NCBI GenBank assembly: GCA_041490825.1
Contig: JBGPTW010000002.1
Location: 28,445-92,444 of the forward strand
Length of the DNA: 64,000 bases
Source of the DNA: Candidatus Methylomirabilia bacterium
GTDB taxonomy: Bacteria > Methylomirabilota > Methylomirabilia > Rokubacteriales > CSP1-6
Direction: 5' to 3'
The translations under genes and the position numbers were made by a program. Below the pieces are notes generated by a model, which saw only the letters and a list, made by a program, of their open reading frames with translations, was not told the origin of the DNA and did not search any database. Positions 101 through 3,436 of the stretch are shown here, one piece after another (positions within the stretch are counted from its first letter, which is position 1; every line of letters starts with the position of its first letter).

Positions 101-3100
101 ATGACCAACCACGAACGCGTCGGCAAGGCGCTGGAGCTCTTGAAGAGCGGCCTCGGGCCCTTCGTCGAACGCGAGTTTAAGAACGCGTACCAGGATCGCG
201 CCGCCGCCGAGGCGGGCAGGTTCATGGGCGAGGATCGCCTGAACGCGAAGCGGCCGGTGGCAGACTGGGACGTAGCCGCGCTCCTGAAGCTCATGTGGGA
301 CTCGTGGAACGACGTCTTCCGCAAGACGCTCGGGCCTGCCGAGCGTAGCCTCCTGAGCGAGTTGCGCGACCACCGCAACAAGTGGGCGCACCAGCAGGCC
401 TTCTCCGGCGACGATGCCTACCGCGCGCTCGACTCGGCGGGGCGACTCCTCACCGCCGTCTCGGCGCCGCAGTCCGACGAGATCGAGAAGGTGAAGATGG
501 AACTCCTGCGCCTGCGCTTTGATGAGCAGGTGCGCGGTGAGAAGCGCAAGAGCGCGGGCACGGCCATCGAAAGCACGGCAGCCAGCAACCTCAAGCCGTG
601 GCGCGAAGTGGTGACGCCGCACAAGGACGTGGCGAGCGGCCGCTACCAGCAGGCCGAGTTCGCGGCGGACTTGTGGCAGGTGCATCTCGGTGAGGGCACG
701 GACGAATACCGGAACCCGGTCGAGTTTTTCCGCCGCACCTATCTCACCGAGAGCCTGAAGCGCATGCTGGTGGGCGCTGTGCGGCGTCTCGCCGGCCAGG
801 GCGGCGACCCGGTGGTGCAGCTCCAGACCAACTTCGGCGGGGGCAAAACGCACTCGATGCTGGCGCTGTATCACCTGTTCTCAGGTACGGCACTGGGCGA
901 GCTTGCCGGCGTCGACGCCGTGATGCAGGAGGCCGGGGCGAAGACGCTGCCCACCGCGCGCCGCGTCGTGCTGGTGGGTAACAAGATCTCGCCCGGCAAC
1001 CCGGTCACCAAGCCCGACGGCACGGTGGTGCGCACCCTGTGGGGTGAGCTGGCCTGGCAGCTCGGCGGCAAGAAGGCGTTTGCGCGGCTCAAGGCCGACG
1101 ACGAGAAGGCGACCAGCCCGGGCGACGTGCTGCGCGAGTTGTTCAAGGAGTACGGCCCGTGCGTGGTTCTGATCGACGAGTGGGTGGCCTACGCGCGCCA
1201 GCTCCACGATCAGAGCGACCTGCCGGCGGGCGGCTTCGAGACGCAGTTCACCTTCGCGCAGGCGCTCACCGAATCGGCGAAGCTTGCGAAGAACTGCCTG
1301 CTGGTGATCAGCCTTCCCGCCTCGGACGCCGAGCCTTCACCCCACACCCAGGCGAATGACGTCGAGGTGGGCGGCCAGCGTGGACGCGAGGCGCTCGACC
1401 GCCTGCGCAACGTCGTCGGGCGCGTCGAGTCCTCGTGGCGGCCGGCGAGCGCCGAGGAAGGGTTCGAGATCGTGCGGCGGCGCCTCTTCGAGCCGCTGGC
1501 CGACCCGGCGCAGTTCAAGGATCGCGATGTGGTGGCGCGGGCCTTCGCTGACTTCTACCGCACGCAGCACCAGGAGTTTCCGCCCGAGTGCCGCGCCGCC
1601 GACTACGAGAAGCGGATCAAGGCGGCGTACCCGATCCACCCGGAGATCTTCGACCGGCTCTACACCGACTGGTCGACGCTGGTGAAGTTCCAGCGCACGC
1701 GCGGCGTGCTGCGTCTGATGGCGGCGGTGATCCACAGCCTGTGGGAGAAGGGGGACAGGAACCCCCTCATCCTGCCGGCGAACATCTCGATCGACGATCC
1801 GCGCGTGCAGTTCGAGCTGACGCGCTACCTTTCGGACAACTGGGTGCCGGTCATCGAGAAGGACGTGGACGGCCCGAACTCGCTTCCCCTGCGCATCGAT
1901 GGTGAGATGGCCGGGACCCTCGGCAGGTTCGCGGCGTGCCGGCGCGTGGCGCGCGCGATCTACCTGGGTTCGGCGCCGACAGCCGCCGCAGCCCACCGCG
2001 GCCTTGAGGACCGGCAAGTGAAGCTCGGCTGCGTGATGCCGGGCGAGTCGCCGGCGGTCTTCGGCGATGCGCTGCGCCGGCTGGCGGCTGCGGCCACGTA
2101 TCTCTATCAGGACGGGCCGCGCTACTGGTACTCGACGCAGCCCACGGTGACGAAGCTCGCCGAGGATCGCGGCGAGCAGCTCAGGCGCGATCCGGACAAG
2201 ATCGTGCAGGAGATCGACGCGCGCCTGCGTGCCGACCTGCGCAAGACCGGCGACTTCAGCCGCATCCACCCGCTGCCGCACACCGGTCAGGACGTGCCCG
2301 ACGATCTCGACGCGCGGCTCGTCGTGCTCAGGATCGACCATCCCTACAGCAAGGAGCCAGGAAGCACGGCTGACACCGCCGCCAAGGCGATCCTCCAGTC
2401 GCGAGGCAACACACCGCGCCTCTACCGCAACACGCTGGTCTTCCTCGCCGCCGACAAGACACGGCTGCAGGACCTCGACGAGGCGGTGCGGCGGTACCTC
2501 GCGTGGGAGTCGATCCTGGCCGAAAAAGAGACGCTTGATCTCTCACCGCACCAGGTGAAGCAGGCGGAGACTCAGCGGAACGCCGCCGACAGTGCGGTGA
2601 CGGCGCGGCTGCCGGAGACGTACCAGTGGCTGCTCGTGCCTGTGCAGAGCTTGCCGCAGTCGGCGGTCGAGTGGCAGGCACTCCGGCTCTCGGGGCAGGA
2701 TGCGCTCGCCGTGCGCGCGAGCAAGAAGCTGCGGAGCGACGAGCTGCTGGTGACCAGCTTGGCCGGCACGCCGCTGCGGATGGCCCTTGACCGCGTGCCC
2801 CTCTGGCGTGGCGACCATGTGCCGATCAAGCAGCTCGCCGAGGACTTCGCCCGCTATCTCTACCTGCCGCGACTCAAGGACTCGTCGGTGTTACTCGGCG
2901 CCGTCTGCGATGGCGTCTCGCTCCTCACGTGGGAGCAGGACGCCTTCGCCTTCGCCGACAGCTTTGACGAAGGGGCGGGCCGCTACCGCGGTCTGCGCGG
3001 TGGGCAAAACATCACCCTCGCGGACGCCGATGCGCCCGGACTGCTCGTGAAGCCGGACGTCGCGCGGCGACAGCTCGATGCCGAGAGCGTTAAGCCGTCC

Positions 3101-3436
3101 GCTGGTGTGGGGCCCGCCGGGCCTGGCGTCGGAGGCGAAGGAACGACGCCGACAGGAGCGGGCGCTGGCCCGACTGGAGCACCTGCGCCTGTGGCGGCGC
3201 AGCCCAAGCGCTTCCACGGTACCGTCACCCTGGATCCCGCCCGCGTGGGCCGCGACGCCAGCCGCATCGCCGACGAGGTAATCGCGCATCTCTCGGGCCT
3301 CGTCGGCGCGAAGGTCAAGGTCACGTTAGAGGTGGAGGCTGAGATCCCTTCCGGTGCGCCAGATCACGTCGTGCGCACCGTCACCGAGAACAGCCGGACT
3401 TTGAAGTTCACGAGCCAGGGGTTCGAGAAGGAGTGA
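101..3436 (+). CDS. Swt1-like HEPN domain fused to DUF499-family P-loop ATPase (component of DUF499/DUF1156 R-M-like defense systems)
   Basis: N-terminus has the R-x4-H HEPN motif (RDHRNKWAHQ); GGGKTHS Walker A and VVLIDEW Walker B; 1111 aa length and overall layout typical of DUF499; GAGGAG SD 7 nt upstream of ATG. Confidence 0.8.
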   Translation: MTNHERVGKALELLKSGLGPFVEREFKNAYQDRAAAEAGRFMGEDRLNAKRPVADWDVAALLKLMWDSWNDVFRKTLGPAERSLLSELRDHRNKWAHQQAFSGDDAYRALDSAGRLLTAVSAPQSDEIEKVKMELLRLRFDEQVRGEKRKSAGTAIESTAASNLKPWREVVTPHKDVASGRYQQAEFAADLWQVHLGEGTDEYRNPVEFFRRTYLTESLKRMLVGAVRRLAGQGGDPVVQLQTNFGGGKTHSMLALYHLFSGTALGELAGVDAVMQEAGAKTLPTARRVVLVGNKISPGNPVTKPDGTVVRTLWGELAWQLGGKKAFARLKADDEKATSPGDVLRELFKEYGPCVVLIDEWVAYARQLHDQSDLPAGGFETQFTFAQALTESAKLAKNCLLVISLPASDAEPSPHTQANDVEVGGQRGREALDRLRNVVGRVESSWRPASAEEGFEIVRRRLFEPLADPAQFKDRDVVARAFADFYRTQHQEFPPECRAADYEKRIKAAYPIHPEIFDRLYTDWSTLVKFQRTRGVLRLMAAVIHSLWEKGDRNPLILPANISIDDPRVQFELTRYLSDNWVPVIEKDVDGPNSLPLRIDGEMAGTLGRFAACRRVARAIYLGSAPTAAAAHRGLEDRQVKLGCVMPGESPAVFGDALRRLAAAATYLYQDGPRYWYSTQPTVTKLAEDRGEQLRRDPDKIVQEIDARLRADLRKTGDFSRIHPLPHTGQDVPDDLDARLVVLRIDHPYSKEPGSTADTAAKAILQSRGNTPRLYRNTLVFLAADKTRLQDLDEAVRRYLAWESILAEKETLDLSPHQVKQAETQRNAADSAVTARLPETYQWLLVPVQSLPQSAVEWQALRLSGQDALAVRASKKLRSDELLVTSLAGTPLRMALDRVPLWRGDHVPIKQLAEDFARYLYLPRLKDSSVLLGAVCDGVSLLTWEQDAFAFADSFDEGAGRYRGLRGGQNITLADADAPGLLVKPDVARRQLDAESVKPSAGVGPAGPGVGGEGTTPTGAGAGPTGAPAPVAAQPKRFHGTVTLDPARVGRDASRIADEVIAHLSGLVGAKVKVTLEVEAEIPSGAPDHVVRTVTENSRTLKFTSQGFEKE

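Follow-up and report, generated by a model that had tools for sequence, protein, structure and literature searches.

The window that we analyzed is a 64,000-nucleotide (nt) stretch of DNA from a Candidatus Methylomirabilia bacterium (contig JBGPTW010000002.1 of GenBank assembly GCA_041490825.1). Close to its left edge, at positions 101–3436 of the forward strand, it carries a gene for a protein in which a Swt1-type HEPN domain precedes a DUF499 ATPase. An earlier reading of the window, made from its letters alone and referred to here as the sequence-only reading, took this gene for the visible end of a DUF499/DUF1156 restriction-modification (R-M)-like defense system. With the upstream DNA in hand, we find that the gene is almost certainly hmaC of the Hma (helicase-methylase-ATPase) system, also called the Type-1 BREX-related (BR) system, and that the window begins inside the Hma operon.

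The hmaC gene and its operon

The hmaC open reading frame (ORF) begins with ATG, preceded 6 nt upstream by a Shine-Dalgarno-like GGAG at 91–94, and its product matches two Pfam families in succession. HEPN_Swt1 (PF18731) aligns over profile positions 1–115 of 115 (E = 1.5e-37; 128.8 bits against a cutoff of 27.5) and DUF499 over residues 297–916 (E = 2.4e-26; 92.3 bits against a cutoff of 23), which bears out the domain fusion proposed earlier; the N-terminal R-x4-H motif named along with it is R92-N-K-W-A-H97. Among PADLOC models the best match is HmaC (1183.3 bits), with residues 163–1109 aligned to positions 2–940 of the 941-position profile, which begins at residue 163 here and thus leaves the HEPN domain out. 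Alignment A1 shows no variation in the P-loop region from N244 to M253 or at the Walker B residues D359 and E360. Modeled alone, residues 1–150 form an all-helical bundle with a predicted local distance difference test score (pLDDT) of 92.4, as befits the all-alpha HEPN fold, and the best structural matches of this model are yeast Swt1 and, co-equally, AbiF. A sequence search of the PDB with HmaC gave no match.

We obtained the DNA upstream of the window from JGI contig Ga0534150_0000056 (145.7 kb; L081/L088), which was reached by an exact match of the window's IetA protein and then walked upstream via an exact 964-residue methylase (P0001), and from an NCBI metagenome-assembled genome (MAG), GCA_041482695.1 (L089), which carries the same genes. 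The JGI contig differs from the window by one mismatch in 17,044 nt, at window position 894, and its coordinates convert to those of the window by subtracting 14,611 from L088 positions. An exact 50-mer search of metagenome contigs returned 0 matches, and looking up the RelA-like gene of the window brought up nothing but short Logan contigs.

This contig holds a complete, co-oriented hmaA-hmaB-hmaC set in which the catalytic motifs of all three proteins are intact (Table 1). In both the JGI and the NCBI copy, hmaA and hmaB are undisrupted and on the same replicon as hmaC. HmaA is a SNF2 helicase fused to a C-terminal PD-(D/E)xK nuclease of the NOV_C/DUF3883 type, and it keeps the motifs GAGKT132, DEAH232 and QRFGR621 as well as the nuclease motif E1118-V-K. 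HmaB (964 residues) matches Pfam MethyltransfD12 in addition to DUF1156 and keeps motif I (DPFAGGG138) and motif IV (DPPY567); its gene falls beyond the left edge of the window, separated from hmaC by about 1.8 kb. The DUF1156 methylase and SNF2 helicase-nuclease are the partners that had been expected just beyond the window edge, both are on the same strand as hmaC, and the protein itself falls within DUF499, the points on which the sequence-only reading had staked its case. That reading also placed the end of the adjoining upstream gene correctly, at nt 45 (TGA at 43–45), but this gene is not a core partner. Window positions 1–45 hold the last 14 codons and stop (LREHWGDVEIIHLT*) of a DUF488/DUF488-N3a gene belonging to an inserted cassette, and this tail matches ORFs directly upstream of hmaC in three related loci (L026, L059 and L074).

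Two sets of genes interrupt the core operon: a SIR2-HerA pair between hmaA and hmaB, and a DuOB-DUF488-DUF488 triad, which corresponds to PADLOC candidate PDC-M45, between hmaB and hmaC. GC content is 56–58% in the SIR2-HerA insert and 61–63% in the DuOB-DUF488 region, compared with about 67% in the hma core, and these lower values are consistent with separately acquired cassettes. A scan of the operon for promoters and terminators yielded nothing above shuffled expectation.

Table 1. Features of hmaC, of the operon upstream of it and of its downstream neighbors, in window positions and in positions of the source contig (L088)
Feature	Window	Source contig (L088)	Strand	Basis or remark
hmaC, HEPN-DUF499 ATPase, 1,111 residues, third core gene of the Hma/Type-1 BREX-related system	101–3436	14712–18047	+	PADLOC HmaC, 1183 bits
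Swt1/Abi2-clade HEPN domain, predicted metal-independent endoRNase	125–463		+	Residues 9–121
HEPN catalytic motif R92-N-K-W-A-H97 (R-x4-H)	374–391		+	Sequence and alignment
HmaC/DUF499 core, P-loop ATPase followed by helical and winged-helix-rich domains	587–3427		+	Residues 163–1109, PADLOC HmaC span
Walker A/P-loop G246-G-G-K-T250	836–850		+	Motif search
Walker B V355-V-L-I-D-E360	1163–1180		+	Motif search
Gly/Pro/Ala-rich low-complexity linker	3101–3205		+	About residues 1001–1035, from translation
Small conserved C-terminal domain	3206–3433		+	Residues 1036–1111
Intergenic spacer, 55 nt, with GGAG	46–100		+	Direct sequence reading
DUF5131 and unannotated 282-residue partner, PADLOC candidate PDC-M41		1654–3233	+	PDC-M41B 378.9 bits, PDC-M41A 83.6 bits
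hmaA, 1,194 residues		3312–6896	+	PADLOC HmaA 1704.7 bits; Pfam SNF2-rel_dom, Helicase_C, NOV_C
SIR2		7018–8208	+	PADLOC 315 bits
HerA		8205–10004	+	PADLOC 623 bits
hmaB, DUF1156 N6-adenine methyltransferase		10001–12895	+	PADLOC HmaB 1579.5 bits; Pfam DUF1156, E = 4.9e-32
DuOB, 229 residues		12905–13594	+	PDC-M45A 315 bits; Pfam DuOB
DUF488, 201 residues		13605–14210	+	PDC-M45B 295 bits
DUF488/DUF488-N3a, 145 residues	1–45 (tail)	14219–14656	+	PDC-M45C 252 bits; Pfam DUF488, E = 4.8e-25
RelA-like protein, 243 residues	3463–4194		-	RelA_SpoT 28 bits, cutoff 27
NA37/YejK-like nucleoid-associated protein, 348 residues	4423–5469		-	Neighbor of RelA-like gene
IetA, AAA ATPase	6058–7044		+	PADLOC 256 bits
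IetS, subtilase	about 7254–9605		+	PADLOC 134 bits

Conservation, gene order and the surrounding defense island

A scan of GTDB species genomes produced more than 576 relatives of HmaC. The best 80 of these, whose loci are the sample for the counts below, are 73–82% identical to it along practically its full length, with the HEPN domain in the alignment; 78 align from residue 1 or 2, and in two (L058 and L079) a contig end truncates the gene. Their sources are Acidobacteriota, Planctomycetota, Chloroflexota, Chlorobiota, Gemmatimonadota, Pseudomonadota, Bacillota and Actinomycetota, and also a Methanobacterium MAG. At least 8,000 protein clusters match HmaC as well, all listed matches having the PF18731 plus PF04465 architecture under the names "Swt1 family HEPN domain-containing protein," "DUF499 domain-containing protein" and "predicted AAA+ superfamily ATPase." With thousands of copies that are 73–89% identical, and full-length homologues at that identity in many phyla across the genome scan and the protein clusters, the HEPN-DUF499 fusion is far beyond chance. 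A search with the HEPN domain alone against 1.84 billion representatives returned 2,200 matches at E ≤ 0.001; because these are mostly short HmaC-like gene fragments, the result says little about other architectures.

Conservation is uneven along the protein. Among the 79 full-length homologues, identity per 50 residues ranges from 0.69 to 0.96 over residues 151–950, whereas block 1001–1050, which contains the linker, is the most variable part of HmaC (mean identity 0.42 against about 0.8 elsewhere). Identity is again 0.82–0.84 at the C terminus (residues 1051–1111). Residues R92, N93, W95, A96, H97 and Q98 in and beside the HEPN motif are invariant in 79 of 79 homologues, and also in alignments A1 and A2, a pattern of strict purifying selection at the HEPN active-site residues.

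The gene order of the operon recurs in these loci. In 69 of 80, hmaC is preceded by hmaB, and in 45, practically all of those with enough DNA, hmaB is in turn preceded by hmaA. The hmaB-hmaC spacing is 13–120 nt in about 41 loci and 0.3–9 kb in the others, exceeding 300 nt in 27 of 69; loci in which the two genes abut, about 40, have 9–22 nt between them. Between hmaA and hmaB the gap is usually 0.6–5.5 kb. Large gaps at both places mark both junctions as insertion sites.

Some inserts recur and others do not. The DuOB-DUF488-DUF488 triad occupies the same hmaB-hmaC slot in L026, L059, L063 and L074 and stands downstream of hmaC in L065; a literature search on DuOB, DUF488-N3 and PDC-M45 found no paper characterizing it. 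A close homologue of SIR2-HerA occurs in the hmaA-hmaB slot in 0 of the 80 loci. Another recurrent cassette in that slot encodes a sacsin-like (HATPase-type) protein of about 1,400 residues that matches PADLOC TmtA models at about 185–190 bits (L020, 2968–7173; L005, 397–4626; also L022, L035, L053, L055 and L069). A Ser/Thr kinase-TPR-FHA protein that matches the PADLOC mad6 (200 bits) and PD-T4-6 models adjoins hmaC in L005 (8195–9964) and L012 (8048–9757), and neighbors of this kind may be the reason for a loose association between Hma and the MADS defense system. One could imagine that the cassettes embedded in our locus are wired to HmaC, with the DUF499 ATPase as a shared sensor hub that would license the HmaA nuclease, the HEPN RNase, the SIR2 NADase and DUF488. 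Were this so, the R-M-like system would become a platform for abortive infection with several effectors, but we consider such wiring very unlikely.

The operon sits in a defense island of about 23 kb that comprises PDC-M41, Hma, the embedded SIR2-HerA, the embedded PDC-M45 and IetAS, in keeping with the multi-system island that had been anticipated. A P-type cation ATPase gene flanks it upstream, and genes for Usp, FtsH, PadR and a chromate transporter follow on the downstream side; a search of its borders for tRNAs found none. The DUF5131 pair lies directly upstream of hmaA, and a similar pair occurs near hmaC in L067. Downstream, what had been described as an ATPase/protease pair is IetA/IetS, a known defense system. 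The gene described as a toxSAS-like module does match RelA_SpoT, at 28 bits against a cutoff of 27, but the match is marginal and N-terminally short and the label weak, with the NCBIfam YjbM-like model giving 41 bits against a cutoff of 320. This gene and that of its NA37 neighbor are convergent to hmaC and have a GC content of 57–59%, and no PADLOC system matches the pair. In L089, the IetA and RelA-like genes were called as split fragments and are possibly frameshifted. As candidate parts of Hma, the RelA-like, NA37, IetA and IetS genes were rejected, as their homologues stand beside hmaC in 0 of 80 related loci; they are independent neighbors.

A model for HmaC and its rivals

We think it probable that the protein acts as the ATPase subunit of the Hma operon in the following way. 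HmaB would mark self by N6-adenine methylation of host DNA. HmaC, as an ATPase of ORC/Cdc6-STAND-like type that has winged helices for DNA binding and a sensor domain at its C terminus, would recognize unmodified or foreign DNA and assemble a complex, and HmaA would translocate on the invader DNA and nick or cut it. Activity in HEPN RNases requires that two R-x4-H motifs be juxtaposed, so the HEPN domain is most likely silent in an HmaC monomer and switched on when the ATPase oligomerizes. It might then form a second line of defense, an RNase that brings about abortive infection once DNA restriction has failed, a back-up step that we propose tentatively and rate a little short of an even chance.

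What is known of the system from experiment concerns mainly HmaA. The protein from Halomonas meridiana protects Escherichia coli against phage T4 through its helicase and nickase domains, and is the only Hma component with experimental phage protection so far; over-expression of HmaB had no measurable effect on T4 (Liu 2024, PMC11232893). In the related loci studied here, HmaC carries its HEPN domain while the HmaA alignments extend to NOV_C at the C terminus, up to query residues 979/980. The HEPN domain accompanies the HmaA nuclease and is not a substitute for it, a co-occurrence more in line with a second layer added to the first than with a replacement effector.

Several points weigh against this account. 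The sole Hma system tested, that of Halomonas meridiana, has an hmaC of 2,877 nt, or about 958 codons, and HmaA alone protected (PMC11232893); that length is too short for an extra HEPN domain of about 160 residues. Methylation-state sensing by HmaC and activation of its HEPN domain by oligomerization are steps that we infer throughout. The structural model of HmaC is poor: built from a shallow alignment of sequences 81–90% identical, the full-length AlphaFold model has a mean pLDDT of 51 and is confident only in the HEPN domain (residues 1–140) and parts of the P-loop domain, and a Foldseek search with it against the PDB gave weak generic AAA+ matches alone (E ≥ 0.012, none below 0.01). The ORC/Cdc6-winged-helix-RRM architecture is accordingly taken from the literature, as is the reading of the C-terminal domain of DUF499 ATPases as an RRM/ferredoxin-like putative sensor (PMC12839542), a region where pLDDT is below 50 in our model. 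Finally, window position 894 makes codon 265 of hmaC CTG (Leu), whereas the JGI contig, the NCBI MAG and the representative P0121 have CCG (Pro). Proline is the consensus at this residue, which lies 15 residues past the P-loop in a nearly invariant column (≥90%) of a 41-sequence homologue alignment. L265 may reflect strain variation or an error in sequencing; it also explains why an exact look-up of the window's HmaC protein found no record, the public copies having P265.

A different view is that HmaC is an autonomous Avs/STAND-like abortive-infection protein, with HEPN as effector, the NTPase as switch and the C-terminal domain as sensor, that merely travels with hmaA and hmaB. The effector-NTPase-sensor layout does match the general logic of STAND/Avs defense, and unrelated cassettes separate hmaB from hmaC in many loci, as the 27 wide gaps among 69 attest. 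HmaA alone suffices against T4, about 20% of hmaA loci have no hmaC, and Liu et al. suggest that HmaB and HmaC may act independently (PMC11232893). Set against this are the order and strand of hmaA-hmaB-hmaC, kept across phyla at 73–82% identity, and the hmaB-hmaC spacing of 9–22 nt in about 40 loci, which implies co-translation or co-transcription. Moreover, each of the three BR subtypes, like type-3 BREX, combines DUF499, methyltransferase and helicase (PMC12839542). We therefore regard independent action of HmaC as unlikely.

The HEPN domain might instead be a non-catalytic module for RNA or nucleic-acid binding or for dimerization, as proposed for the HEPN domain of eukaryotic Swt1. That domain is thought inactive, the Swt1-like family is described as "partly conserved" for Rx4-6H (PMC3710099), and yeast Swt1 is among the best structural matches of our model. 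However, the co-equal match is AbiF, and in the AbiF/Abi2 family of HEPN proteins the Rx4-6H motif is conserved; the bacterial Ava_2192 version is classed as "Active" (PMC3710099); and R92, N93 and H97, together with W95, A96 and Q98, do not vary in any of the 79 homologues. A non-catalytic role for the domain consequently seems quite improbable.

Membership of the Type-2 BR system (DUF499-DUF1156-DUF3780-PLD-helicase) or of eight-gene MADS, to which the sequence-only reading had linked the gene, is refuted for practical purposes by the low NF042962 score, the missing DUF3780 gene and PLD domain, and the failure of any mad model to match HmaC. The Type-2 BR system has homologous ATPase and methylase families, with DUF499 and DUF1156 domains in common, and among PADLOC models DUF499 matches HmaC with 157 bits, while DUF1156_MTase scores 82 bits in the locus. 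The HmaA, HmaB and HmaC models, however, score 7–20 times above the Type-2 BR models, the NCBIfam model NF042962 (DUF499_antiphage) gives HmaC 184.8 bits against an equivalog cutoff of 1200, and Type-2 BR has no HEPN domain. The genes of L088 include neither the DUF3780 gene that had been expected upstream nor an HKD/PLD nuclease on the helicase; the PADLOC PLD_Helicase match to HmaA (98 bits, residues 582–663) covers the generic helicase C-domain only. As to MADS, its model requires MAD6, MAD7 and MAD8, and the MADS preprint makes no mention of DUF499 or DUF1156. A weak mad8 match is limited to the embedded HerA (69.5 bits, against 623 for the HerA model), and no kinase was found among the L088 genes of the hma locus.

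Relation to known systems

We return to the identification of the gene as hmaC of an Hma operon, which places it in a documented family. HEPN-DUF499 proteins in R-M operons with SNF2-DUF3883 were first noted in 2013 as the Ava_2192 family (Anantharaman 2013, PMC3710099), Hma was named in 2021 as a three-gene operon with 1,638 instances in 26 phyla (Payne 2021, PMC8565338), partial validation followed in 2024 (PMC11232893), and a 2026 survey in Nucleic Acids Research renamed the group "Type-1 BREX-related (BR) system" and counted the HEPN fusion in 1,370 of 2,446 taxa (PMC12839542). As a discovery, the locus thus matters little. The question that it touches is whether a suicide RNase is built into an R-M-like system, for which an intact locus would be a usable test case, and it is a clean example of defense systems nested inside another defense operon.

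With AbiF/Abi2 and Swt1, HmaC shares a HEPN sub-clade, by profile and predicted fold, and the R-x4-H motif. The contexts differ. PbAbiF is an Abi family protein of 297 residues that was crystallized as a dimer with a non-coding RNA, whereas the HEPN domain here is part of a 1,111-residue ATPase. Nor does the locus offer room for an RNA partner like that of PbAbiF: the gap upstream of hmaC is only 55 nt here, too short for a separate regulatory RNA, and 9–22 nt in related loci where hmaB abuts (9–55 nt overall), and an Rfam scan of the window found no family.

Type-3 BREX has the same triad of ATPase, methyltransferase and helicase, and the DUF499, methyltransferase and helicase proteins have been related to its BrxC, PglXI and BrxHII, with DUF499 as sister to BrxC (PMC12839542). 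HmaA matches the BrxHI/BrxHII models at 298–316 bits, while HmaC has no match to the BrxC models at E ≤ 0.01, and none of PglZ, BrxA, BrxB and BrxF is found among the L088 genes. Where type-3 BREX has PglZ as effector, the locus has a helicase-fused restriction endonuclease and a HEPN domain. The relation between Hma and BREX is, according to the literature, one of remote homology.

The architecture is the same as that of Type-1 BR and Ava_2192, namely a Swt1/Abi2 HEPN domain and a DUF499 ATPase with an N6-methyltransferase and a SNF2-DUF3883 restriction endonuclease. One difference lies in the C-terminal domain, which is described for Type-1 BR as "hypervariable" and is conserved (0.82–0.84) within the close clade sampled here, the preceding linker being the part that varies. 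To Hma as defined by PADLOC the correspondence is full length for all three core proteins (1705, 1580 and 1183 bits for HmaA, HmaB and HmaC) and extends to the gene order and to the common habit of hosting other defense genes inside the operon; inserted genes occur in 66.5% of hma loci, a "defence gene insertion hotspot" (Liu 2024, PMC11232893). The inserts themselves differ, being SIR2-HerA and DuOB with two DUF488 genes here and Septu, PARIS, Ppl and AAA_21 pairs among the known ones. In these respects the hmaC locus is a typical member of an already described system.

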